Positions 5,211 through 53,072 of a stretch of DNA of 64,000 nt are shown here, one piece after another (the first letter of the stretch is position 1; the number at the start of each line of letters is the position of its first letter). Under the pieces are notes generated by a model that searched no databases, was not told the DNA's origin, and worked only from the letters and a program-made list of their open reading frames with translations. A program made the position numbers and the translations under genes. The DNA lies in assembly GCF_053078305.1 (NCBI RefSeq), contig NZ_CP166879.1; one strand, written 5' to 3'.

Positions 5211-6593
5211 TTATCCCACCAGCATCCAGGTCGCCGGAACTGAGGCAATTAACAGCATGCCAATCAGCACCATTTCCTGACGGTTCAGTACATTATCATG
5301 TGTATGCGTTTTGCGCGCATACAGGAAAACCAGCAGCCCCGGTGCATACAGAACAACGGATAACAGCAAGTGCATTGGACCAGAGGCGTACAATAACCAT
5401 AAGCCATAAATGCAGGCACCGACACCTACCGCTTTATGCAGTGGACGGGTTGCGATTTTCAGCAAGAACGCGCCGACCAGGAAATAGGGCACCAGAATCA
5501 TTTCTGAGGCGATGGTCAGCAACGTGTTGTAATCGGAACCGGTCAGCCAGATGAGTACCAGACAAATTTGCACGCAGATGTTGGTCAACCACAGTGAGGC
5601 GGATGGCGCAGCTTGTGCGTTCTGGCGCGCAAAAATGCGTGGGAATGCTTTATGAGTGGCAGCCAGGAACGGAACTTCTGCCGCCATGATGGTCCAGCTT
5701 AAGTACGCGCCGCAAACGGAAACGATCAAACCGGCAGCGATGATGATTTCGCCCCATGGTCCCATCATTTCCACCATCAGACCGGCCATTGATGGGTTAC
5801 GAATTTCAGCCAGTTCAGGACGTGCCACCACACCCAGCGAAAGCAGCGTTACCAGCAAGTAAACGCCCAGAGCGGAGAGAACCGCCAGTAGTGTCGCTTT
5901 GCCAACATCACGTTTATTACGCGCACGCGCAGAAACAACCACGGCACCTTCCACACCAATGAAAACCCACAGGGTGATCAGCATGGTGTTTTTCACCTGT
6001 TCCCAAACAGGTACGCCAAGTGCAAGTCCGGTGAAGTCGAGCTTGAAGGTATCCAGTTTGAACATCATCATCGCCAGCACAACAAACAGACCCAGCGGCA
6101 ACAATTTTGCCAGTGTCGCCACCAGGTTAATGCTGGCAGCGGTTTGCACCCCGCGCAGGATCAAAAAGTGAACAATCCACAATAAAGCCGATGCACCGAC
6201 TATCGATTGCCAGGTATTACCATCGCCAAACAGGCGCAATTCCGGCGTGTCCGTAAAAAAGCTTAACGCGGAAAAAACGATCACCAGATAGGAGACGTTG
6301 GCGATGACTGCACACAGCCAGTATCCCCATGCGGAACAAAAGCCGATTAGCTCGCCAAACCCTTCGCGGGCATAGGTAAAGATACCGCCGTCAAGTTCGG
6401 GACGAATGCGCGTGAGGATCAGCATGGCAAAGGCCAGCAATAAAATGCCAGCGCCAGTAATACCCCAGCCGATGAGCAGTGCTGCCGGGCTGGCAACTGC
6501 CGCCATATTTTGCGGCAGACTGAAAACACCCGCGCCCAGCATTGAGCTTAATACCAGCGCGGTGAGTGCGCTCAGTCCCAGTTTCTTTTCCAT
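5211..6593 (-). CDS. ydgI: Amino-acid antiporter YdgI/ArcD family (APC transporter)
   Basis: 460-aa polytopic membrane ORF; conserved position between folM and ydgH. Confidence 0.85.
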   Translation of the reverse strand: MEKKLGLSALTALVLSSMLGAGVFSLPQNMAAVASPAALLIGWGITGAGILLLAFAMLILTRIRPELDGGIFTYAREGFGELIGFCSAWGYWLCAVIANVSYLVIVFSALSFFTDTPELRLFGDGNTWQSIVGASALLWIVHFLILRGVQTAASINLVATLAKLLPLGLFVVLAMMMFKLDTFKLDFTGLALGVPVWEQVKNTMLITLWVFIGVEGAVVVSARARNKRDVGKATLLAVLSALGVYLLVTLLSLGVVARPELAEIRNPSMAGLMVEMMGPWGEIIIAAGLIVSVCGAYLSWTIMAAEVPFLAATHKAFPRIFARQNAQAAPSASLWLTNICVQICLVLIWLTGSDYNTLLTIASEMILVPYFLVGAFLLKIATRPLHKAVGVGACIYGLWLLYASGPMHLLLSVVLYAPGLLVFLYARKTHTHDNVLNRQEMVLIGMLLIASVPATWMLVG

Positions 6594-6778: not shown

Positions 6779-7723
6779 TTATTTATACAGATCTGCGCTG
6801 ACGGTCAGGTTATTACCACGTTCCTGCCACTGGCGGGTGATGTGGTAATACTTAGCACCTTTCTTCGCGGCACGTTTCGCAACCTGATAGGAGACTTCGG
6901 TCATGTTGCCGTAGTTGCCAGAGAATTTGATGCTGTCGAACGGGACCATCATCGCTGCTGTCGCTTTGTTCAGTTCTTCGACTTTAGTGCCATCCGGGAG
7001 CGTGACGGTGTAACGCCCGCCTTTTGATGACTGGGTTTCAAAGAAGCGACCGACTTCAGAACTTGGTGATGCGGTAGTCGCAACACCCGGGATCTCAACT
7101 TTCTTCGCGGCTTCGCCACCGGCAGCCAGAGCTGCACGTCCTGCTTCGGAATCTGCCGGGATCACATCCGGGCTCTGGACGATACGTTTCTTAGCATCTT
7201 TTTTATAGATGAATGCAGTAATACGCTGGTTGCCGCCCTGGTTGGCATCGATTTGACGAACGATGTAGAAAGAGTAGGCACCTTTCGCTTTTGCCGCTTT
7301 GGTGATGGCATCATTGACTTCTGGCTGGCTACGATAGAAGCCCTGGACGGTGACCGTGTCAAACGGTTCAATCAGAACAGCCTGATCTTTCGGCAGTTCG
7401 ACAACACCGTTAATTACGCGATTACTTGTTTCTTCTGCTTTTTCAGCATCGGCTTTATAGAGGTCAGCGACCACACGCCAGTTACCGCTGTTACCAAAAT
7501 CAGAAGTGTCGACAACATAAAAAGAGGCGGCACCTTCTTTATCTGCGCGACGAGAAACGGCTTTCACCGCTTCGCCAATAGCATTAAAACGACCGGTAAC
7601 CACTACACGGTCAAAAGGTTTAACCGCTGCCGCTTGCTCCGGTGTCAGTTCTGTTGCTGCGTTAACGGAGAATGCCGTAGCAGAAAGCAGTGCCGACGCC
7701 AGGAGGGTGTTCTTAAGCTTCAT
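6779..7723 (-). CDS. ydgH: Periplasmic protein YdgH (DUF1471 repeats)
   Basis: 314-aa ORF with signal peptide and three internally repeated segments; synteny. Confidence 0.85.
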   Translation of the reverse strand: MKLKNTLLASALLSATAFSVNAATELTPEQAAAVKPFDRVVVTGRFNAIGEAVKAVSRRADKEGAASFYVVDTSDFGNSGNWRVVADLYKADAEKAEETSNRVINGVVELPKDQAVLIEPFDTVTVQGFYRSQPEVNDAITKAAKAKGAYSFYIVRQIDANQGGNQRITAFIYKKDAKKRIVQSPDVIPADSEAGRAALAAGGEAAKKVEIPGVATTASPSSEVGRFFETQSSKGGRYTVTLPDGTKVEELNKATAAMMVPFDSIKFSGNYGNMTEVSYQVAKRAAKKGAKYYHITRQWQERGNNLTVSADLYK

Positions 7724-38631: not shown

Positions 38632-38794
38632 AATGGCAGCCTCTTGGTTGAGTATTAATAACTCACCACCAAGGTTTTCCACGACCATAAGGGTGGTGAG
38701 ACGTACAGGGGTGGAAATACCGGTCAACCAAGAATCCGGCCAGCCTTGCGGCTGCCCTGCACGCCCCACCATAATCTGAATGTGGCTGTGCATT

Positions 38795-38823
38795 ACGCAT
38801 AAAAAAACCGCCTGAGCGCGGTT
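38795..38823 (-). terminator. Weak intrinsic terminator between the DicF-like RNA and the Rha-like gene
   Basis: Minus-strand AACCGCGCTCAGGCGG followed by TTTTTTT; stem only 4-5 bp. Confidence 0.3.
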
Positions 38824-39119
38824 ATGCGCTTGATTGAATTCCGGGTTTCCACGCCCGGCACCCGCTTTATGAGGTGCAGATGAACTATAATTCCACCCGT
38901 TCTGGTTTTCAATAGCTACATTCAACATTTTCTCTTACCCTTCATCACCGAAGTGAACTTTGTTGATGCAGTGCCTGGTGCCTCCAGGTGACGTTAACCA
39001 GTTAACAATTAACGCCGGAATACAGAAGTATGCCCGTTACGCCCCGTAAAAGACCACTTTACGGTTTTAACTGTTCCGCGTGCGCTTAGCCGCATTCACC
39101 GCATCACAAAATTCACTTT

Positions 39120-39177
39120 AAAAAGGGTGGCAGAGCAGTCACGGAGTAGAACTGATGCCACCAAAGACTACACATGG
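39120..39177 (-). ncRNA. dicF: DicF-like small RNA
   Basis: Minus strand reads ...GGTGGCATCAGTTCTACTCCGTGACTGCTCTGCCACCCTTTTT, near-identical to the 3' two-thirds of K-12 DicF including its terminator hairpin; 5' segment diverges. Confidence 0.55.
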
Positions 39178-39771: not shown

Positions 39772-40179
39772 TTATTGATGTTTGTTACGTTTGCGAGCTT
39801 CTAGTAGCTCGGTGAATAGGCGATTAAAATTCTCAACGCGGGCACGGAGTTCGCTGATCTGTGCTTGCTGCTCTGATTTTGGAAGTGCGCGATACAATCG
39901 CAACATCTCCAACTCATCTTCCGATAAGTCTAAGGCGCTGTTGAGTGCAACTGGTGGATCTGGTGTTTTATCCTCGTCACCAAACAGTATCCAAGTTGGT
40001 GAACATTGCAATACCTCAGCTAGGCGATGCAAATTTTGCCCGCGCGGGGCTGTATGGTCGCTTTCCCATAGTGAAATTGATGAGCCAGATACGCCAGCAG
40101 CTTTGCTTAAATCGTTTTGACTTAAACCAACCTGTTTGCGTCTTTCTCTAATTCGTTGACCTAAAGTTTTCTCGTTCAT
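39772..40179 (-). CDS. dicA: DicA-like HTH (XRE family) prophage repressor
   Basis: 135-aa ORF with N-terminal HTH (LSQNDLSKAAGVSGSSISLWE) and the DicA-like C-terminal segment VLQCSPTWILFGDEDK; divergent from the Cro-like gene. Confidence 0.8.
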   Translation of the reverse strand: MNEKTLGQRIRERRKQVGLSQNDLSKAAGVSGSSISLWESDHTAPRGQNLHRLAEVLQCSPTWILFGDEDKTPDPPVALNSALDLSEDELEMLRLYRALPKSEQQAQISELRARVENFNRLFTELLEARKRNKHQ

Positions 40180-40256
40180 ATTTAGATATCTTAATAACCC
40201 TTGACTTGAGATTCCTTGAGTGATTACTATTGAGAAAACTCAAGCCTGGAGGGGTG
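40180..40256. promoter_or_regulatory. Immunity-region operator with divergent promoters
   Basis: Repeated half-sites ACTTGAG...TTGAGT...TTGAG...CTCAAG between the divergent dicA-like and dicC-like genes. Confidence 0.5.
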
Positions 40257-40484: not shown

Positions 40485-40989
40485 ACAGGTTTGCGAGGCT
40501 CTGGATGCCTGGGTATGCAGACCAGGAATGACACAGGAGCAGGCGACGATATTAATCACCGAAGCATTCTGGGATCTGAAAGAGCGCCCGAACATCGATG
40601 TTCAGCGTGTCACGTTTGATGATGGCGCGGTTGATCAACGGGCGCTTGGCGTTAACCGGGTGAAGATATTCGAACGCTGGAAGGCTATCGACACCAGGGA
40701 TAAGCGTGAAAAATTCACGGCGCTGATTCCGGCAATTATGGAGGCTATCCGGATTAGTGATTTCAGGTTGTACCGCGAAATTACTGACGGAAAAAGCATT
40801 ACGTACATGATTGCCGGGTTAAACAAAGAATATGGCGATGTGGTGGAGTCCGGGCTGCTTTTTGCAGATCCAGCTGTTGTGGAACGTGAGACAGACGAGC
40901 TTATAGAAAAAGCAATCGCTTTCAAGCGTGCCTATCGTCACCAGTACCAACAAAAAGCCGGATGGAATTATGAGCCTTCTTTTTGCTGA
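40468..40989 (+). CDS. YdaT-like prophage protein
   Basis: 173-aa ORF MKITPEQVCEAL... overlapping the dicC-like 3' end; resembles Rac YdaT in N-terminus and the ...REKFTALIPAIMEAI... segment. Confidence 0.45.
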   Translation: MKITPEQVCEALDAWVCRPGMTQEQATILITEAFWDLKERPNIDVQRVTFDDGAVDQRALGVNRVKIFERWKAIDTRDKREKFTALIPAIMEAIRISDFRLYREITDGKSITYMIAGLNKEYGDVVESGLLFADPAVVERETDELIEKAIAFKRAYRHQYQQKAGWNYEPSFC

Positions 40990-41935
40990 ACGCCCGCTGG
41001 TTATAAACACACAGCTGGCGATGAAGATTGGTTTAAACGAAGCCATTGTGTTGCAGCAACTGCATTACTGGTTAAGGGATACCAGTTCCGGCATGGAATG
41101 TGATGGCGTTCGCTGGATTTACAACACAACGGAACAATGGCTGGAACAGTTTCCGTTCTGGTCAGAGTCAACGTTAAAGCGTGCGTTTGCAAGTCTGAAA
41201 GCGCTGGGGCTTTTGCGTAGCGAAAAGCTCAATAAATCGAAGCGTGATATGACTAATTTTTACACAATTAACTACGATAGCGCGCTTTTAGATGATGGCA
41301 AAGTGAACGAATCCATCGGGGCAAAATGCGCCACTCCATCAGGTCAAAATGACACGATGGAAGAGGTCAAAATGAAACGTTCCATTGGTTCAAAACGGCC
41401 CAATGTCATCAGGTCAAAATGGCCCGATGATCCTACAGAGAATACAACAGAGAATACAACAGAGAATAAAAAACTCTCTTGTCCGGACGCTTCGCAACCG
41501 GACGAGTTGACGGCTGAACAGGCGTTTTTAACCCGCCATCCTGATGCAGTTGTGTTCAGCGTGAAAAAACGCCAGTGGGGAACCCGGGAGGATTTGACAT
41601 GTGCGCAGTGGATCTGGGGGCGGGTTGTAAACCTGTACGAACAGGCTGCCAGTGACGATGGTGAGATCACGCGACCGAAAGAGCCCAACTGGACGGCGTG
41701 GGCCAATGACGTGCGCACAATGCGGATGCTGGATGGAAGAAGTCACAGACAAATTTGCGAAATGTTCAGTCGGGCACAACGGGATCCGTTCTGGATAAAA
41801 AACATCAAGAGCCCGGAAAAACTCCGTGAGAAATGGGATGAACTGGTTATTCGACTGTGGCGTGGTCCCGCGCAGCGTTGCGTGAATCATATTTCTGAAC
41901 CGGATACCGAAATTCCGCCGGGTTTCAGGGGGTAG
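40970..41935 (+). CDS. Phage replication initiation protein (O-like replisome organiser)
   Basis: Translation MSLLFAERPLVINTQLAMKIGLNEAIVLQQLHYW...; internal repeat-encoded linker; followed by a DnaC-like loader. Confidence 0.6.
   Translation: MSLLFAERPLVINTQLAMKIGLNEAIVLQQLHYWLRDTSSGMECDGVRWIYNTTEQWLEQFPFWSESTLKRAFASLKALGLLRSEKLNKSKRDMTNFYTINYDSALLDDGKVNESIGAKCATPSGQNDTMEEVKMKRSIGSKRPNVIRSKWPDDPTENTTENTTENKKLSCPDASQPDELTAEQAFLTRHPDAVVFSVKKRQWGTREDLTCAQWIWGRVVNLYEQAASDDGEITRPKEPNWTAWANDVRTMRMLDGRSHRQICEMFSRAQRDPFWIKNIKSPEKLREKWDELVIRLWRGPAQRCVNHISEPDTEIPPGFRG
41318..41475 (+). repeat. Iteron-like direct repeats plus 12-bp tandem repeats (candidate ori) inside the replication gene
   Basis: GGTCAAAATG at 41342, 41365 and 41412, variants GGGCAAAATG and GGTTCAAAACGG, followed by ACAGAGAATACA in about 2.7 tandem copies (41436-41468). 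Confidence 0.55.
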
Positions 41936-41941
41936 CGCACC

Positions 41942-42682
41942 ATGAAAAACATTACGTCAGGTGGTGTTCTGGCAAGAGTCAGCAGATTTGTGCCGCAGGA
42001 TGCAATCCCTCCGTACCGTACGGTGGCGGAGTGGCGGGAATGGCAGCTTGCTGAAGGGCGTAAGCGAAGCGAGGAGGTTAATCGTCTGAATCATCAGACG
42101 CGGGTTGAAAAAATCATTAACCGCTCCGGTATCCAGCTGCTTCACCGGAAGTGTACGTTCGGTAACTACCGGGTGCAGAACGATGGTCAGCGCCATGCCC
42201 TGAGTCAGGCGAAATCCATTGTGGCAGAGCTGGAAGGCGGCTGTACGAATTTTGTTTTCAGTGGCAGGCCTGGCACAGGAAAAAACCACCTGGCGGCGGC
42301 TATTGGCAACCACCTTCTGGCGAAAGGTCGCAGTGTGATTGTGATAACAGTGGCGGATGTGATGCTGGCGTTACATGGCAGCTACGACAACAAAAACTCG
42401 GGCGAAAAATTTTTGCAGGGATTGTGTGGCGTTGACCTGCTGGTACTGGATGAAATTGGCATGCAACGGGATACGCGTAATGAGCAGGTCACGCTTAATC
42501 AGATTGTTGACCGCAGAACGGCATCGTTACTCAGTGTGGGGATGCTGACAAATCTTAATCATGCAGCGATGAATACACTTCTCGGCGAGCGGGTAATGGA
42601 CCGCATGTCCATGAACGGTGGTCGCTGGGTGACTTTTAACTGGGAGAGCTGGCGTCCGAACGTCAGCCAGCACAGGAACTGA
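41942..42682 (+). CDS. DnaC-like helicase loader (IstB-type AAA+ ATPase)
   Basis: Walker [16 protein letters not shown] and Walker [10 protein letters not shown]. Confidence 0.8.
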
Positions 42683-43473: not shown

Positions 43474-43532
43474 GTGGGTGGAAGACGTGGTGCCGGGCTG
43501 AAATTCTGATACTCCGGCAGTGCGCGGGAACA

Positions 43533-43787
43533 ATGAAGGTAAAAAGCATTGGCGCACTTATCGGACGAACTGAAGCGGCAGTGAGAACGAAGGCACGGGA
43601 GTTGGGCATCAGCATGATGTTACGTGGTGATTTTCACCCGTCGGCAAAATATTCACAACGTGATATTGAGCTGGCGCGGCAACTGCATCAGCGCGGTGTA
43701 CCCCGACGGGAAATTGCCGAAAAGTTCGGAATGAAGTTGCGCACAGTGAATAACTACGTTTATTTCGACAGGAGGGTTCAGGCGTGA
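43533..43787 (+). CDS. Hypothetical small protein (start uncertain)
   Basis: Frame open from 43383; first ATG after the upstream stop is at 43533; possible HTH (RREIAEKFGMKLRTVNNYV). Confidence 0.35.
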   Translation: MKVKSIGALIGRTEAAVRTKARELGISMMLRGDFHPSAKYSQRDIELARQLHQRGVPRREIAEKFGMKLRTVNNYVYFDRRVQA

Positions 43788-44080
43788 GGGTGAGAATTTA
43801 TATCGCCGGTCCGATGACGGGATATGAAAATTTCAACCGCGAGGCGTTTCACAGGGCGGAAGAAGCACTGAAACGGGAAGGGCATACCGTTTTAAACCCG
43901 GCAGTACTTCCGGACGGGCTGACTCAGCCGCAGTACATGGATATTTGCATGGCAATGATTCGTTGTGTGGATGCGGTTTATATGCTGAAAGGCTGGCAGC
44001 GGTCGGCAGGCGCTAAGGCAGAGCTGGCACTGGCGGAGAAACTGGGGCATGCGGTGATTTATCAGGAGGTGGCTCAATGA
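43784..44080 (+). CDS. DUF4406-type protein (nucleoside 2-deoxyribosyltransferase-like fold)
   Basis: Translation MRVRIYIAGPMTGYENFNREAFHRAEEALKREGHTVLNPA fits the N-terminal motif of this family. Confidence 0.6.
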   Translation: MRVRIYIAGPMTGYENFNREAFHRAEEALKREGHTVLNPAVLPDGLTQPQYMDICMAMIRCVDAVYMLKGWQRSAGAKAELALAEKLGHAVIYQEVAQ

Positions 44081-44538
44081 GAGAGGTTAACTATGAGGCG
44101 CTTCGTGAGGCAGCACAAAACTATCAGTCGACGCTGGCGTGGTATCAGGCTATCCCGGACAGCCCAAATGCTGAACGGGATTGTGATGCGGCTCTTGCTG
44201 CGTTTAAGCGTCACATCCGTCATCGGGAAGCGGATATTATCGCTGATTTGCTGGATGGACTGGAAGAAGCAAAATCACAACTCAACGAGCAACGTGAGTA
44301 TTACGAAGGTGTTATCTCGGATGGGAGTAAGCGCATTGCTGAACTGGAAGCGCGGGAAGTTCAATTACCGACTCGCTACGACCTTCGATATGGACACCCG
44401 ATAAATGCAGATGAGCGACAAGTCATGATACCTAAAGAAAATGGCAGTTGGCTTTACCTGATTGACCTAGAACACGCATTACGCGTCGCTGGCATTCGCA
44501 TCAAAGGAGAGGAGCATGGAAATAAAACCAGAGGATGA
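44077..44538 (+). CDS. Hypothetical phage protein (Ead/Ea22-like, coiled-coil)
   Basis: 153-aa ORF overlapping neighbours by 4 nt; coiled-coil centre; family assignment tentative. Confidence 0.45.
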   Translation: MREVNYEALREAAQNYQSTLAWYQAIPDSPNAERDCDAALAAFKRHIRHREADIIADLLDGLEEAKSQLNEQREYYEGVISDGSKRIAELEAREVQLPTRYDLRYGHPINADERQVMIPKENGSWLYLIDLEHALRVAGIRIKGEEHGNKTRG

Positions 44539-44872
44539 GTTAAGCAATATCGTTTTATTTCCGGTAAAAGAGGATGACCCTCGTAATCAGGTTAATTTTC
44601 TTTATGAGCCATCGGAAAGACCATATTGTCATCACGCCTCTGTTCGGGTTGACGAAAAAGAGCGTCAGGTCCGCTGTAAAATCTGCGGTGCAGTTGTGGA
44701 GCCGTTTGACTGGATGCTCTCTGTGGCGAAAAGAGAAACCAGACTGGCAGATGATGTAAGGCTATTGCACCAGGAGGAACAGGAAAGGCGGAAAAATATA
44801 GAAAAGTTAATTCAGATTGAGCGTAACGCGAAAGCGCGGATACGCAGGGCGACAAAATCCAGAACTGAATAA
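44516..44872 (+). CDS. Hypothetical protein with possible zinc-ribbon
   Basis: 118-aa ORF; CHH...CKIC motif, basic C-terminus. Confidence 0.45.
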   Translation: MEIKPEDELSNIVLFPVKEDDPRNQVNFLYEPSERPYCHHASVRVDEKERQVRCKICGAVVEPFDWMLSVAKRETRLADDVRLLHQEEQERRKNIEKLIQIERNAKARIRRATKSRTE

Positions 44873-44922
44873 ATAAATTTAGCGCTGTAAATAAAATCTA
44901 ATCCTTAACTGGAGGTATATTT

Positions 44923-45135
44923 ATGTTAAATACACAGAAATCCATTAATGCGGAAAAATATAACGAGTGGGCAAGAAAATTCTCTGAGCAGATTTTTAAA
45001 ATTACTGGCGATGAGAATGCGGCAAAAAATGAATTAGAACCGTGGACGCCTGAAGGAGCCGACCCAAATTATTGCTGGAGGGAGGTTGATCCAGTTGATG
45101 CTGCAAATGAAGCTATGAGTTATCACAACGATTAA
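44923..45135 (+). CDS. Hypothetical protein
   Basis: 70-aa ORF preceded by GGAGG. Confidence 0.45.
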   Translation: MLNTQKSINAEKYNEWARKFSEQIFKITGDENAAKNELEPWTPEGADPNYCWREVDPVDAANEAMSYHND

Positions 45136-45167
45136 TGTCAGGAGGCCGCCCGAAAGGGCGGTAATGA

Positions 45168-45386
45168 ATGGTCACATTATTTAGAAAAAAATATCCGCGA
45201 AAGAGTAGAACAACAGAATTTCTGTTTCTCATTCTGTTTATCGTGTTGATGATACCGATATCCCCGTTAATCCTAGTCTGGATAATCGGAAAAATAATTG
45301 AGCCAGTTATTGAATTGTATAACGACGTGGTATGGGCGTCATTCAACACACTGCACAATAAAATTAATCCGTATAAGGAAAGCTGA
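45168..45386 (+). CDS. Hypothetical small membrane protein
   Basis: 72-aa AT-rich ORF with one long hydrophobic segment, filling the gap before the HNH gene. Confidence 0.35.
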   Translation: MVTLFRKKYPRKSRTTEFLFLILFIVLMIPISPLILVWIIGKIIEPVIELYNDVVWASFNTLHNKINPYKES

Positions 45387-45387
45387 T

Positions 45388-45753
45388 ATGGCACTGACGA
45401 AAAAACAACGCGCAGAACTGCGCATGAAGTTCGGTGGTCGCTGTGCTTATTGCGGCTGCGAACTTGGCGAAAAGTGGCATGCAGACCATGTAAAACCGGT
45501 CATTCGTTTTGATGGAAATATGCTTCACCAGGAACGTGACGATATATCCAACATGGTTCCGGCATGCCACCCATGCAATCTGCACAAGCATTGCAGTAGT
45601 CTGGAAGATTATCGGCGAATTATCAGTGATGGTCGTCGTGAATTCCTTGCGTCCGGGAAAGGCAAAGCGCTGGTTCGTATGGGATTGGTTGAAATGAAAT
45701 CTGACCCGGTTGTGTTCTGGTTTGAAAAATATCAAGAAGGGGCTACGGCATGA
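45388..45753 (+). CDS. HNH endonuclease
   Basis: Translation [26 protein letters not shown]...WHADHVKPV...[11 protein letters not shown]; AAGGAA SD upstream. Confidence 0.75.
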
Positions 45754-46094
45754 CGACTTTTACCAGAGAGCAGTTAATAGCTCACGCAGAGGAGACTATT
45801 GAAGCACAGAGACTGTGCATACCGGGCACAATCGACCATGACATCATCCGCACATATAAGATGGATATTGCTGTTCTGGAAATCGCACTGGTATCGCTGG
45901 CAGCAGAGCCAGCCGGTAAATTGCATGAATACAAACCAGTGGGATATCAGCGTCTGGTCGATGAGTTAACCATGCTGGTAAAGCAGTTAACCTGGCAACT
46001 GAGGAAAGCGAAGCCAGACTGCAAATTACCGGATAAGGCGATGAGTTATCTGGAGCGGAACGGACTGATAAGCGTGGAGGATATTTTACGATGA
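45750..46094 (+). CDS. Hypothetical phage protein
   Basis: 114-aa ORF overlapping the HNH stop. Confidence 0.5.
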
Positions 46095-46385
46095 CCTGGC
46101 CTGAAGCATTAACAACGGTAGGAATTGCGATGGCGGTGGCGCTGGTGGTGTATTCGATTTGCCGCTGGGGATAAAAACGGTTTGCGGGAAAAGGAGAGTT
46201 AAGTAGAATTGCAGCGGGTGCTTGAGGCTATCTGTCTCAGGCATGAACACCAAAAGGCAGATAGAGAAAAGCCCCAGTTAACATTACGCGTCCGGCAAGA
46301 CGCTTAACATTAATCTGAGGCTCAATCTGTGAACGGCAAATCTAGGTTAGCCTCTTACGCGCCGAAAGGCAAGGAGAAGCAGGCT

Positions 46386-46541
46386 ATGAAGCAGCAAAAG
46401 GCGATGTTAGTCGCCCTGATCGTCATCTGTATTACCGTCATTGTGACGGCACTGGTAACGAGGAAAGACCTCTGCGAGGTACGAATCCGAACCGGCCAGA
46501 CGGAGGTCGCTGTCTTCACAGCTTACGAACCTGAGGAGTAA
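46386..46541 (+). CDS. hokD: Hok/Gef-family type I toxin (HokD-like)
   Basis: Translation MKQQKAMLVALIVICITVIVTALVTRKDLCEVRIRTGQTEVAVFTAYEPEE; upstream in-frame extension corresponds to the overlapping mok frame. Confidence 0.85.
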   Translation: MKQQKAMLVALIVICITVIVTALVTRKDLCEVRIRTGQTEVAVFTAYEPEE

Positions 46542-46643: not shown

Positions 46644-46961
46644 TCAGGATATTACCTGGATCCCGTTTTTCTCGACAACTGAAAGAAGCCGAAGAGCTGC
46701 ACCTCCCGGGCGTTTCACTCCTCGTTCCCAGTCTGATATCAGGTTTTTACTGACGTTGAGGTATCTGGCAAAAACAGGTTGAGACAGATGCTCTCGTTCT
46801 CGCAGTGCACGGATCCTTTCTGGAGACATTACCGGCGCAGGCTGAAGACAAGTTTCATCGAATTCGCGCATAGTTTGTTTTGTGATTGCACCGATATCAT
46901 GGAGTGACTCCATCATTTCATGTACAGATGCAAGTGCATCACTGCGGTAATTTTTACTCAT
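46644..46961 (-). CDS. HTH (XRE family) antitoxin, HigA-like
   Basis: 105-aa ORF with C-terminal HTH (LSQPVFARYLNVSKNLISDWERG); overlaps the upstream toxin gene by 8 nt. Confidence 0.55.
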   Translation of the reverse strand: MSKNYRSDALASVHEMMESLHDIGAITKQTMREFDETCLQPAPVMSPERIRALREREHLSQPVFARYLNVSKNLISDWERGVKRPGGAALRLLSVVEKNGIQVIS

Positions 46962-47325
46962 TGGGTACCTCCGTGAACTGGCCTTGTTGAATCAATTGTG
47001 CCAGCTGTTCATCAGTAAGATTGAGGACATGGGGAGCGGCTTTTCGAAAAGCATTTTCCTCTATAGCAGTGATATTCTCTCGTTCATTCTTTGCGTATGC
47101 GTAGATGAAAAAGGCTTTTTCTGCAACGCGGTAAAAAATTATTGTCCGGTAACCGCCTGATTTTCCGCCACCACTTCGGGCTAATCTTTGTTTAATGACA
47201 CCACTACCCAAATTTGCGGATATGATCCCCTTATCGGCCAGCTCCACGATTTTGCGCAGCGATTTATCGGAAATCCGATGTTTTCGGGCGAAACGTTCAA
47301 ACCAGGCGTTTTTGAAAATTCGCAT
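46954..47325 (-). CDS. RelE/ParE-superfamily toxin, HigB-like
   Basis: 123-aa ORF with GGGKSGGYRTIIFY segment; toxin-first order typical of higBA. Confidence 0.5.
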   Translation of the reverse strand: MRIFKNAWFERFARKHRISDKSLRKIVELADKGIISANLGSGVIKQRLARSGGGKSGGYRTIIFYRVAEKAFFIYAYAKNERENITAIEENAFRKAAPHVLNLTDEQLAQLIQQGQFTEVPNE

Positions 47326-48103: not shown

Positions 48104-49153
48104 GTGCGGGTATTACTTCGACCTGTTCTGGTACCGGAACTCGGGATGGTGCTCCTAAAGCCGGGCCGTGAATCAATGTCAGCATTCCATAACGGCAGAA
48201 TATTGGTGGAGCCGGAACCGAAAAACATGCGCGGTCTGCCGTCCGGAGTCGTTCCTGCCGTTCGACAGCCGCTGGCAGAGGATAAAACATTACTGCCATT
48301 TTTCAGCAACGAACGGGTGATTCGTGCTGCGGGTGGCGCTGGTGCACTGTCTGACTGGTTATTACGTCACGTGAAATCCTGCCAGTGGCCACACGGTGAT
48401 TATCATCACAGCGAAACTGTCATTCACCGTTACGGTACCGGCGCGATGGTGTTGTGCTGGCACTGCGACAACCAGCTGCGCGACCAGACATCAGAATCAC
48501 TCGATCAACTTGCTCAGCAGAATCTGGTTGCCTGGATGATTGACGTTATCCGTCACGCAATAAGCAGTACGCAGGAGAGGGAGTTATCGCTGGCCGAATT
48601 ATCCTGGTGGGCGGCCTGCAATCAGGTGGTGGATGCACTACCTGAGGCAGTAGCGCGTCGTTCGCTGGGATTACCAGCGGAAAAAATCCGCTCCGTATAC
48701 CGTGAGAGTGACATCGTACCGGGAGAACAGACAGCCATCAGCATACTGAAGCAGCGCACAAAAAATATTGCGCTGCCACTTCACGTCCACCAGCAACAAA
48801 ATCCACCACAGAAAAAAACGGTTGTCAGTATCGCCGTTGATCCGGAGTCTCCTGAATCGTTCATGAGGCGGCCTAAACGTCGCCGTTGGGTTAATGAGAA
48901 ATACACGCGCTGGGTAAAGACACAGCCGTGTGCGTGTTGTGGTAAGCCTGCTGACGATCCGCATCACCTGATTGGTCATGGTCAGGGGGGAATGGGGACA
49001 AAGGCCCACGATATTTTCACGCTACCGTTGTGCCGGGAGCACCACAACGAACTTCATGCAGACCCGCTGGAGTTTGAGAAAAAGTACGGCTCTCAGATTG
49101 AGTTAATTTTTCGTTTTCTTGATCACGCCTTTGCGACTGGCGTGCTCGGGTAA
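48104..49153 (+). CDS. ydfU: YdfU-like prophage protein (DUF968)
   Basis: 349-aa ORF; C-terminal CACCGKPADDPHHLIGHG...LPLCREHHNELH Cys/His cluster; same length and position as Qin YdfU. Confidence 0.55.
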   Translation: MRVLLRPVLVPELGMVLLKPGRESMSAFHNGRILVEPEPKNMRGLPSGVVPAVRQPLAEDKTLLPFFSNERVIRAAGGAGALSDWLLRHVKSCQWPHGDYHHSETVIHRYGTGAMVLCWHCDNQLRDQTSESLDQLAQQNLVAWMIDVIRHAISSTQERELSLAELSWWAACNQVVDALPEAVARRSLGLPAEKIRSVYRESDIVPGEQTAISILKQRTKNIALPLHVHQQQNPPQKKTVVSIAVDPESPESFMRRPKRRRWVNEKYTRWVKTQPCACCGKPADDPHHLIGHGQGGMGTKAHDIFTLPLCREHHNELHADPLEFEKKYGSQIELIFRFLDHAFATGVLG

Positions 49154-51757: not shown

Positions 51758-51833
51758 GGCCCTTTAGCTCAGTGGTGAGAGCGAGCGACTCATAATCGCC
51801 AGGTCGCTGGTTCAAATCCAGCAAGGGCCACCA
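51758..51833 (+). tRNA. tRNA with CAU anticodon, ileX-like (tRNA-Ile2 lysidine type)
   Basis: Cloverleaf GGCCCTTTAGCTCAGTGGTGAGAGC...ACTCATAATCG...GGTTCAAATCC...AAGGGCCACCA; close to E. coli ileX. Confidence 0.75.
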
Positions 51834-51842
51834 TATCACATA

Positions 51843-51919
51843 CCGCCATTAGCTCATCGGGACAGAGCGTCAGCCTTCGAAGCTGGTTGCGCGGGGTTCG
51901 AGTCCTCGATGGCGGTCCA
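51843..51919 (+). tRNA. tRNA-Arg (anticodon TCG)
   Basis: Acceptor stem CCGCCAT/ATGGCGG, anticodon loop CTTCGAA, T-loop GGTTCGAGTCC, 3' CCA. Confidence 0.7.
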
Positions 51920-51932
51920 TTATCGGTATTCA

Positions 51933-52009
51933 GCGTTGTTAGCTCAGCCGGACAGAGCAATTGCCTTCTAAGCAATCGGTCACTGGTTCGAATCCAGTAC
52001 AACGCGCCA
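51933..52009 (+). tRNA. tRNA-Arg (anticodon TCT)
   Basis: Acceptor stem GCGTTGT/ACAACGC, anticodon loop CTTCTAA, T-loop GGTTCGAATCC, 3' CCA. Confidence 0.75.
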
Positions 52010-52771: not shown

Positions 52772-53019
52772 CCGGGTATCAGTCATGCCCCGAAAATTTT
52801 AAATGTCTCACAATTCAGACGGTTGACAGTTGTCTGTTTTGCGGGGAGTTTGTTAAAAGAAACTGGCATGGTGAATCCCCCTGAGCGGAGGGGCGACTGG
52901 TGCATTAGGTGTTATCTTTGATACCTAGGAAAGTGAACGCGCGGGTTTGGTTGCACCGGGCTGAACTCACCGGGAGGCACCCGGCATCATGCGCATGATG
53001 ATACAGATACGCGGCTTTA

Positions 53020-53046
53020 GCCCCTCTCCGGAGGGGCTTTTATATG
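53020..53046 (+). terminator. Intrinsic terminator
   Basis: GCCCCTC-TCCG-GAGGGGC hairpin followed by TTTTATATG. Confidence 0.6.
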
Positions 53047-53072
53047 AATTTTGTAAGATATGAGTAAACTAA

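Follow-up and report, generated by a model that had tools for sequence, protein, structure and literature searches.

Introduction

It is textbook knowledge that the accessory regions of lambdoid phages are mosaics that vary gene by gene, and linker sequences are said, in reports attributed to Juhala (2000) and Clark (2001), to lie at the junctions of lambdoid modules. The accessory protein Ea22 is itself a domain mosaic, in which a short N-terminus and a coiled coil are followed by an interchangeable C-terminal domain (PMC10834534), and the Ea22 proteins of lambda and of Shiga toxin (Stx) phages bias the decision towards lysogeny (PMC7093339). Here, we analyze a 64,000-nucleotide stretch of Escherichia coli DNA (contig NZ_CP166879.1 of RefSeq assembly GCF_053078305.1), which we call the window and in which a lambdoid prophage occupies 33.4–64 kb. 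Our subject is a run of seven small genes at 43784–46094 of this window, which includes a relative of Ea22 and opens with a gene for a protein of the DUF4406 family.

The DUF4406 protein calls for comparison with a second group of described systems, the nucleoside 2-deoxyribosyltransferases (NDTs) and the N-glycosidases that share their fold. In DNPH1, the catalytic residues are Tyr24, Asp80, and Glu104, the 5'-phosphate is contacted by Ser98 and Gly100, nucleosides are not substrates, and Ser128' and Met130' of the neighboring subunit are base- and phosphate-binding residues (PMC10483697). Among phage enzymes, DmtZ is an NDT-family dAMP hydrolase and deoxyribose-5-phosphate transferase of Z-genome phages (PMC12884076), and some phage NDTs of the PF05014 family are active as transferases (bioRxiv 10.1101/2025.10.22.683976).

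Results

Seven Small Genes between the Replication Genes and Q

An original prediction, made from the letters of this DNA, had described the region as a cluster of cargo genes that replace the nin genes of lambda. The six open reading frames (ORFs) that it listed are all present on the + strand where it placed them, and it passed over a seventh within the same coordinates, which encodes the 114-residue protein p114 (45750–46094). It was also right to put the run between the replication genes and hokD since CII-, O-, and DnaC-like genes lie upstream, and hok/sok, a toxin–antitoxin pair on the opposite strand, a DUF968 HNH protein, RusA, and Q follow downstream in this order. All seven ORFs are on the + strand. 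They encode the DUF4406 protein (98 residues from a GTG start, with the N-terminus MRVRIYIAGPMTG; 43784–44080), an Ead/Ea22-like protein of 153 residues (44077–44538), a zinc-knuckle protein of 118 residues (44516–44872), the acidic 70-residue protein p70 (44923–45135), a 72-residue small membrane protein of the DUF4014 family (45168–45386), an HNH nuclease of 121 residues when read from its ATG (45388–45753; the mechanical ORF starts at a TTG at 45298 and gives 151 residues), and p114.

Counted from the upstream gene for a small helix-turn-helix (HTH) protein onward, the spacing between genes is −4, −4, −23, +50, +32, +1, and −4 nt. The tight overlap that had been claimed thus holds for four junctions (4, 4, 23, and 4 nt), while the other genes stand 1 to 50 nt apart. 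An AGGAGG- or GGAG-type Shine–Dalgarno sequence precedes every one of the seven starts, and since all of them have counterparts among the recurrent phage protein families of PHROGs (E = 1e-41 to 1e-57), the seven are far beyond chance. The G+C content of single genes varies between 36% and 54%. In RefSeq, the same genes are annotated in the near-identical prophages of E. coli FHI_NMBU_11 (98.6% identity over 97% of a 3.3-kb query) and O26:H11 strain 11368, and a contig in IMG/VR is identical to the window over the whole region. With every gene annotated in RefSeq and PHROGs and the identical sequence in IMG/VR, the locus is already known.

A sequence scan found no promoter-like or terminator-like site on the + strand between a pR-like site (40201–40230) and 46899, which is weak negative evidence because the scanned region as a whole has no more sites than shuffled sequence would be expected to give. 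Rfam gave no match inside 43784–46094. Since the ORFs are codirectional, carry Shine–Dalgarno sequences, and have overlapping or nearly abutting stops and starts, the simplest reading is that the seven genes form a single transcription unit and would be expressed from one read-through delayed-early transcript.

The Genes Occur in Many Combinations and in Two Early Operons

We located all the window proteins in 80 viral contigs with a DUF4406 gene of at least 92% identity and in five reference loci (a locus scan with the DUF4406 protein alone returned only close relatives of E. coli type). Gene-content patterns were then compiled for the 63 loci in which DUF4406 is at least 91% identical and at least 3 kb of downstream sequence is available. 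These loci display 16 different patterns, with the Ea22-like gene present in 52, the zinc-protein gene in 53, p114 in 17, DUF4014 in 13, HNH in 10, and p70 in 9. The full gene set of the window recurs in four or five of the 63. Prevalence is just as uneven in complete E. coli genomes, where among 5426 genomes DUF4406 is found in 1207, the zinc protein in 1678, and HNH in 702, and the whole seven-gene arrangement in 3. When the window was compared with ten loci by blastn, similarity broke at 43781, 44069–44120, 44476–44488, 44918, 45138–45168, 45375, 45409, 45695–45765, 46094, and 46169–46175, as well as at 45858–45865 inside the p114 gene. With this one exception, all breakpoints are within ~55 nt of a gene start or stop.

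The framing of the region as a cargo cluster does not survive these data, in which genes assort independently, similarity breaks at gene boundaries, and prevalences are unequal. We think it probable that the region is a variable accessory segment of the rightward delayed-early operon, in which seven single-gene modules are transcribed together and exchanged independently, rather than one multigene system. Exchange of the modules would occur by recombination at gene boundaries.

The Stx2a phage ArgO145 (NC_049918, 5029–7679) carries the zinc protein, p70, DUF4014, HNH, and p114 modules, with 97% DNA identity to window 44516–46094. There, these five modules follow a different, longer Ea22-like gene, DUF4406 is absent, and their place is the exo-xis region, the part of the leftward operon that is flanked by exo/ssb and int. 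Since the modules of the ArgO145 exo-xis region are those that here occupy the stretch from the replication genes to Q, in the rightward operon, accessory modules move between leftward and rightward early operons. No nin-family match was found among the seven ORFs in PHROG, Pfam, or NCBIfam, direct comparison with the lambda nin proteins not having been run, and the sole trace is a weak Pfam match to NinG (3e-03). The replacement of the nin genes, therefore, holds by position only, the recognizable lambda relative being Ea22, which is of the exo-xis region and not of nin. Judged by its sequence, the region belongs to the exo-xis pool, to which Ea22 belongs, and not to the nin genes.

A junction element, tcAGGAGGCCGCCCGAAAGGGCGGta (45139–45163, + strand), lies between the p70 and DUF4014 genes. 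In it, an AGGAGG directly precedes a GC-rich hairpin with a stem of 7 bp and a GAAA loop. The hairpin stands 6 nt ahead of the next ATG, which is that of DUF4014, and the 51 nt at 45128–45178 fold with −19.7 kcal/mol (z = −3.5). An exact 18-mer of the element is present in 40 of 89 fetched loci, where it is flanked by at least two different genes upstream and at least four different genes downstream. Copies are found, for example, at 5948–5965 and 7020–7037 of locus L002 and at 7158–7175 of locus L036, and in O26 and ArgO145, two copies bracket a three-gene insertion of ~1 kb. The element looks like a short conserved linker where lambdoid modules are exchanged, and it may also bring the Shine–Dalgarno sequence near the start codon.

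The HNH Gene Behaves as a Gene-Sized Module

Profile searches, on which the original prediction had staked its HNH and DUF4406 assignments, supported both. The 121-residue protein matches Pfam HNH (PF01844, E = 3.6e-06) and PHROG 2118 (8.8e-57), and its motif is complete, with C19xxC22, D33-H34, N55, and C60xxC63-N64 providing the zinc CxxC pairs and the catalytic His and Asn. In NCBIfam, it shows only subthreshold matches to IscB and retron-HNH, and the other six ORFs match no family there. In PADLOC, it shows a generic similarity to PtuB (3.2e-08) with no PtuA partner, and the other six ORFs have no match. The protein is predicted to be a free-standing, active-looking small nuclease, the gene of which would move as an exact gene-sized cassette. 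At locus L036, homology to the window covers exactly 45375–45765, which corresponds to the HNH ORF ±12 nt, and the gene lies there between two other Ea22-like genes. The alignments thus portray the gene as a gene-sized mobile module. Of the 702 E. coli genomes with the gene, 384 hold at least 80% of it and 318 hold partial copies, and this large number of truncated copies suggests decay or recombination inside the gene.

The DUF4406 Protein Is Predicted to Be a Minimal N-Glycosidase

The first protein of the run matches Pfam PF14359 over model positions 2–91 of 91 (i-Evalue 5e-37) and PHROG 355, labeled nucleoside 2-deoxyribosyltransferase (7.5e-48), and its RefSeq homolog is named DUF4406 domain-containing protein. 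Pfam Nuc_deoxyrib_tr (PF05014) matches with 7e-03 only. An AlphaFold model built from a 75-sequence alignment (pLDDT 95.5) has four strands and three helices and displays the Rossmann-like fold of the NDT superfamily. When this model was compared with the Protein Data Bank (PDB) using Foldseek, every match at E ≤ 1e-3 was an NDT, and DNPH1 and the CMP N-glycosidases MilB and BcmB came next at 4e-3 to 2e-2, with TM-scores of 0.73–0.79 to the query and ~0.5 to the target. Both the family and the NDT-like fold that had been proposed for this protein are, therefore, upheld by the Pfam, PHROG, and structural matches.

A profile search of PDB sequences identified the NDT of Trypanosoma brucei (8.8e-05), with YIAGP aligned on YIAGP and GAkaE on GTAFE; a search with the single sequence gave nothing significant. 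In profile alignment, GAkaE also falls on SPGTHIE of BcmB. Alignment by hhalign with human DNPH1, in a sequence whose numbering agrees with every residue named in PMC10483697, pairs Y6 with Tyr24, S74 with Ser98, G76 with Gly100, and E80 with Glu104. In T. brucei NDT, BcmB, and DNPH1 alike, the counterpart of E80 is thus the catalytic Glu. In the S74-x-G76-x3-E80 motif, the Ser is six residues and the Gly four residues before the nucleophile, as in DNPH1, and the position of the Ser is occupied by Ser in BcmB and by Asp in T. brucei NDT. Whether Asp or Ser stands at this position is what reportedly decides between nucleoside and nucleotide specificity, a rule attributed to Kaminski and Labesse (2013). 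Across 151 family members, S74 is conserved in 95%, E80 in 93%, and Y6 in 81%, with Phe in most of the others.

Since the Tyr and the Glu nucleophile are kept, and Ser and Gly are found where DNPH1 binds the 5'-phosphate, sequence and model suggest that we are dealing not with a nucleoside transferase but with a minimal N-glycosidase, which would act on a 5'-phosphorylated substrate. In such an enzyme, Glu80, positioned by Tyr6, would attack C1' of the sugar, and the 5'-phosphate would be held by Ser74, Gly76, and the loop GPMTG that follows strand 1. As its substrate, the enzyme would take the 5'-monophosphate of a nucleoside or deoxynucleoside, or some other riboside with a 5'-phosphate, and not a free nucleoside.

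Several observations weigh against this prediction. The hhalign match to DNPH1 is statistically weak when taken alone (E = 0.11). For the general-acid Asp (Asp80 in DNPH1), two alignments disagree, pointing to residue 50 or residue 55 of the DUF4406 protein, and D53, which is near this position, is kept in just 47% of the family. Furthermore, the protein ends 18 residues past E80, and the C-terminal ~50 residues of the NDT and DNPH1 targets, which are 130–165 residues long, are without counterpart in its 98 residues; Ser128', Ala129', and Met130', which DNPH1 receives from the adjacent subunit, are among those that it lacks. Since the missing C-terminal part supplies the adjacent-subunit residues that bind base and phosphate, the active site may be incomplete or built differently.

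The family is large, with 12,381 cluster representatives (clustered at 50% identity) matching at E ≤ 1e-3, and its members are found in phages of Vibrio, Arthrobacter, Escherichia, and others. A tblastn search returned 324 phage records, mainly of Vibrio, Arthrobacter, Aeromonas, and Pseudomonas phages. In three distant phages, the DUF4406 homologs lie amid genes for helicase, exonuclease, dNMP kinase, RusA, and NrdH. This location in the early replication/recombination region of very different phages suggests a role in nucleotide-pool manipulation during replication. Neither in the three phage regions with annotation nor in three short contigs without it, which hold small ORFs only, was a recurring neighbor seen. 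Literature searches found no assignment of function to DUF4406, which is mentioned only incidentally.

Some relatives are longer. The extra parts of 27 such proteins contain no Pfam domain and gave no functional clue. Seven relatives (P0025, P0031, P0039, P0048, P0054, P0067, and P0128) have fused N-terminal extensions that repeat a motif of the type L(A/K)(F/W)L(V/L)xN(L/V)xxWP, which belongs to no Pfam family, and these extensions may represent an uncharacterized phage domain. The label LygF, which stands beside DUF4406 in phage records, was considered and rejected as a name for the protein: it belongs to the upstream DUF977 gene, and no function was given for it in the papers found.

Alternative Explanations for the Locus and for DUF4406

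Could the seven genes instead form one coordinated system, for example of DNA or nucleotide modification or of anti-defense, in which glycosidase, nuclease, and helpers work together? Their tight packing with overlapping stops and starts would fit, a base-excising enzyme beside a nuclease is a plausible pairing on paper, and the DUF4406, Ea22-like, and zinc-protein genes do travel together in ~52 of the 63 close relatives. This trio, which could hide a functional link, counts against fully independent exchange, as does the fact that the 63 loci are not phylogenetically independent, and the roles that we propose for the seven genes are themselves inferred from residues and folds; recent shared ancestry is the simplest explanation for the trio. 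However, HNH accompanies DUF4406 in 10 loci only, the 63 loci show as many as 16 content patterns, and there are recombination breakpoints at every gene boundary. Genome prevalences are unequal, with the full arrangement in just 3 of 5426, ArgO145 carries the five downstream modules in a different operon without DUF4406, and the distant DUF4406 contexts that we inspected revealed no conserved partner. PADLOC matched no known defense system, bar the generic similarity of HNH to PtuB. The synteny data largely refute a single system, which we regard as highly improbable. A narrower question is whether the HNH gene moves on its own account, as a selfish, free-standing homing endonuclease, which would cleave alleles that have no HNH gene and insert a copy of itself there. 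Such homing would account for the gene-sized pattern of presence and absence, including the homology at L036 that is confined to the ORF ±12 nt between unrelated flanking genes, the 99–100% identity of the protein across contexts whose neighbor genes are 87–100% identical, and the partial copies in 318 of the 702 genomes (out of 5426) with the gene. Yet, the other modules encode no nuclease and show the same gene-boundary breakpoints, so ordinary lambdoid mosaicism suffices to produce the pattern. We identified neither a target site nor an HNH-less allele in which a cut site is conserved, and recombination, DNA processing, or exclusion would be equally possible roles for the nuclease. Homing is thus possible but unlikely, and independent exchange of single-gene modules remains our preferred account of the locus.

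For the DUF4406 protein, a true NDT that swaps bases between free deoxynucleosides has the best database matches on its side, since NDTs are the top hits both in the profile search (T. brucei NDT, E = 8.8e-05) and in Foldseek (E = 5e-05, TM 0.76). PHROG 355 and many phage annotations use that name, and transferase activity is documented for some PF05014-family NDTs of phages (bioRxiv 10.1101/2025.10.22.683976). What speaks against an NDT is the 95%-conserved Ser six residues before the nucleophile, which corresponds to Ser98 of DNPH1 and to a Ser of BcmB where T. brucei NDT has an Asp, and which in DNPH1 binds the 5'-phosphate (PMC10483697). The Pfam Nuc_deoxyrib_tr match of just 7e-03 and the lack of the C-terminal part of NDTs (target-normalized TM ~0.5) point the same way, and we consider a transferase distinctly unlikely. 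Conflict between phage and host offers another setting for such a fold. Retron Ec86, for instance, uses an NDT-like effector. The DUF4406 protein might accordingly be a counter-defense or conflict enzyme rather than a housekeeping one, which early in infection would cleave a 5'-phosphorylated riboside (NMN, NAD+) or a nucleotide-derived immune signal, or it might be a nucleotide sponge. An early-expressed accessory gene with 12,381 cluster representatives, found in hundreds of unrelated phages, would suit this very widespread minimal N-glycosidase. A charged leaving group such as nicotinamide would fit the TIR-like fold and the absence of a fixed general-acid residue family-wide, because loss of the Asp (D53 in 47%) should be tolerable with a positively charged leaving group. 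Nevertheless, PADLOC gave no DUF4406 match at E up to 0.01, no literature evidence for a conflict role was found, the closest folds and motifs are those of NDT, MilB, and DNPH1 and not of TIR, and in the three distant phages that we inspected, the neighboring genes serve replication and nucleotide metabolism. A conflict enzyme, therefore, strikes us as quite improbable, and an N-glycosidase of the nucleotide pool as the better-fitting candidate.

The Ea22-Like Protein, the Zinc-Knuckle Protein, and Three Small Proteins

The coiled-coil protein of the original prediction turned out to be a member of the Ead/Ea22 family (Pfam PF13935, 5.6e-06; PHROG 250, 1.2e-41). BLASTP aligns its residues 1–108 with lambda Ea22 at 39% identity (E = 9e-18), the core AKSxLNEQREYYEGVISDGSKRIAxLE being near-identical, and this similarity marks it as a true relative of lambda Ea22. 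It shares the N-terminus and the central coiled coil of lambda Ea22 but has a different C-terminal domain: the alignment stops at residue 108, and the lambda-type C-terminal domain, which has been solved by NMR, is absent. No PDB sequence match was found at E up to 10. Of its 4869 homologs, many are 95–97% identical over just 55–63% of the length, which indicates that genes of this family are intragenic mosaics. The protein is predicted to be an Ea22 paralog, that is, an oligomeric coiled-coil protein with a swapped C-terminal domain.

The claim of a zinc ribbon in the 118-residue protein was sound insofar as the protein has a zinc-binding knuckle. C38, H40, C54, and C57 are invariant in a 41-sequence Enterobacterales alignment and are the Cys-His-Cys-Cys zinc ligands. 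It matches PHROG 1621, of unknown function (1.3e-56), and a Pfam Zn_Ribbon_TF (TFIIB-type) match of 2.6e-04, which one protein in a mixed set of nine gave, is presumed to be its own. The AlphaFold model (pLDDT 73.6 overall and >90 in the helix) shows a disordered N-terminus, a small beta knuckle, and a single helix of ~55 residues that contains the near-invariant basic motif LRxEExxRRxNIEKLIQIERNAKARIRR. The sole Foldseek match is a TFIIB zinc ribbon over 27 residues (E = 0.1); a PDB sequence search gave nothing significant, and there is no similarity to lambda Ea8.5. The family is confined to Enterobacterales. From Escherichia to Serratia, Erwinia, and Yersinia, the helix is near-invariant while the remainder drifts to 45% identity, and this difference suggests that the helix has a conserved binding partner. 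The protein would bind zinc through its Cys-His-Cys-Cys set and present the long basic helix to nucleic acid or a host protein. In E. coli FHI_NMBU_11, which is the nearest relative in RefSeq, the gene (7199–7554 of locus L001) is frameshifted; the window copy is intact.

The three remaining proteins have no assignable function. p70 is acidic (pI 4.5, with 14 Asp and Glu vs. 7 Lys and Arg), matches PHROG 4659, of unknown function, over its full length (4.6e-50), and has no match in Pfam, NCBIfam, or PADLOC. Its composition recalls DNA-mimic or anti-restriction proteins, which is a likeness of composition only. The 72-residue protein matches Pfam DUF4014 (4.3e-25) and PHROG 1832 (1.3e-44) and has one strongly hydrophobic segment at about residues 19–42, with a 19-residue Kyte–Doolittle maximum of 3.0. 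p114 matches PHROG 660 (8.2e-43) and is a short member of its family, with a C-terminal segment common to larger mosaic proteins such as a 328-residue relative at L036, which ends in the same C-terminus. It has no PDB sequence match and no similarity to lambda Ea22.

Genetic Surroundings

In the early region of the prophage, a cI-like repressor gene (39772–40179, minus strand) is followed by a cro-like gene, a CII/YdaT-like gene, an O-like replication initiator gene (40928–41935), and a gene for a DnaC-like helicase loader (41942–42682). Between the latter and the seven ORFs lie a DUF1627 gene, which is intact here and has an internal stop in E. coli FHI_NMBU_11 (5440–6156 of locus L001), and then the gene for the small HTH DNA-binding protein (43506–43787, + strand), the stop of which overlaps the DUF4406 start by 4 nt. 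The start of this HTH gene is ambiguous, since it could be at 43506, by analogy of length with the RefSeq homolog and with the start codon there unchecked, or at the ATG at 43533. Its product matches Pfam HTH_7 (7.6e-04) and PHROG 323, transcriptional regulator (7.7e-27), and is annotated by RefSeq as a DNA-binding protein in FHI_NMBU_11. In O26, the same slot holds an unrelated DUF977 gene.

Downstream, the sok RNA of a type I hok/sok toxin–antitoxin locus (46216–46391, + strand; Rfam RF01794, 109.7 bits, E = 2.3e-24) adjoins the hokD ORF (46386–46541, + strand), which RefSeq annotates as hokD in FHI_NMBU_11. A second toxin–antitoxin locus, encoding a RelE/HigB-like toxin and an HTH antitoxin, comes directly downstream on the minus strand (46644–47325), and O26 and ArgO145 have a RelE/ParD pair at the place equivalent to these toxin–antitoxin loci. 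The DUF968 protein (48104–49153) shows a match to PHROG 96, HNH endonuclease (2e-174), and a motif rich in Cys and His at its C-terminus. Besides RusA, two unrelated HNH proteins are thus encoded in the early right arm, the 121-residue protein and the DUF968 protein.

Two features lie farther away. In the left arm, 38689–39176 (minus strand) contains Rfam matches to C4 antisense RNA, isrK, and DicF RNA (61–80 bits), a set that resembles Qin/Rac-type and P1-like immunity regions. Downstream of Q (51758–52009 and 52837–53049), there are a trio of tRNAs (Met-type with a CAT anticodon, Arg-TCG, and Arg-TCT) and a match to the STnc100 small RNA (140.9 bits). Stx phages carry tRNAs and toxin genes at this place. 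No ORF of StxA size was seen downstream of Q in the 120-residue ORF list, which was no proper check aimed at StxA.

Discussion

If anything at this locus deserves work at the bench, it is the hypothesis that the residues of DUF4406 suggest and the helix of the zinc protein, which is extremely conserved. No activity is assigned to the large DUF4406 family, for which the Tyr and Ser-x-Gly-x3-Glu pattern leads to a concrete hypothesis, that of a 5'-phosphate-dependent N-glycosidase. More broadly, the exo-xis genes of Stx phages, i.e., Ea22 and its neighbors, prove to be the same module pool that fills the replication-to-Q region of other prophages, and since the pool is the same, phenotypes of the exo-xis region may also apply to the replication-to-Q region.

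How does the DUF4406 protein compare with characterized enzymes? With DNPH1 (human and rat, also known as Rcl) and with MilB and BcmB, it has in common the aligned Tyr, the Ser-x-Gly-x3-Glu motif, and the Glu nucleophile. These enzymes are ~130–175 residues long, whereas the DUF4406 protein has 98 residues, which include neither the strand and helix at the C-terminus nor the residues that the other subunit contributes. The general-acid Asp of DNPH1 has no secure equivalent in DUF4406, being unconserved in the family, and DUF4406 has a conserved loop of its own, NPAxLPxGL...YM. NDTs (PF05014; T. brucei, C. thermalis, Lactobacillus) are the best matches by sequence and by Foldseek and share the YxAGP start and the Glu nucleophile, but the DUF4406 core is shorter, and T. 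brucei NDT has an Asp six residues ahead of the nucleophile where DUF4406 has a Ser. DmtZ provides a precedent for a phage enzyme of the NDT superfamily that acts on dNMPs and for manipulation of the nucleotide pool by this fold, its kinship with DUF4406 having been shown at the level of the superfamily. It has ~145 residues and five strands and is linked to purZ/dutZ in phages that replace adenine; unlike those phages, the prophage here shows no sign of base replacement. DUF1937 (PDB 1t1j) is also among the nearest described counterparts, 1t1j itself being a protein of unknown function. As for the HNH protein, it aligns with the Gmet_0936 HNH endonuclease (PDB 4h9d) over the full CxxC...DH...N...CxxCN motif, with a sequence similarity that is marginal (E = 0.058).

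Lambda itself offers the remaining comparisons. The N-terminal and coiled-coil parts of its Ea22 are homologous to the 153-residue protein, and the C-terminal domain differs; pro-lysogenic activity is a result obtained with lambda and Stx Ea22 (PMC7093339), to which the 153-residue protein is likened by sequence only. The lambda nin region (ren, ninA–ninI) has the same map position, between P and Q, and likewise consists of dispensable small genes that are swapped as modules. The boundary or linker sequences of lambdoid phages have their parallel in the conserved short junction element, which flanks modules here. Finally, the exo-xis region of lambda and Stx phages is, in ArgO145, home to five of the seven modules, which here take their place in a rightward operon between the replication genes and Q.

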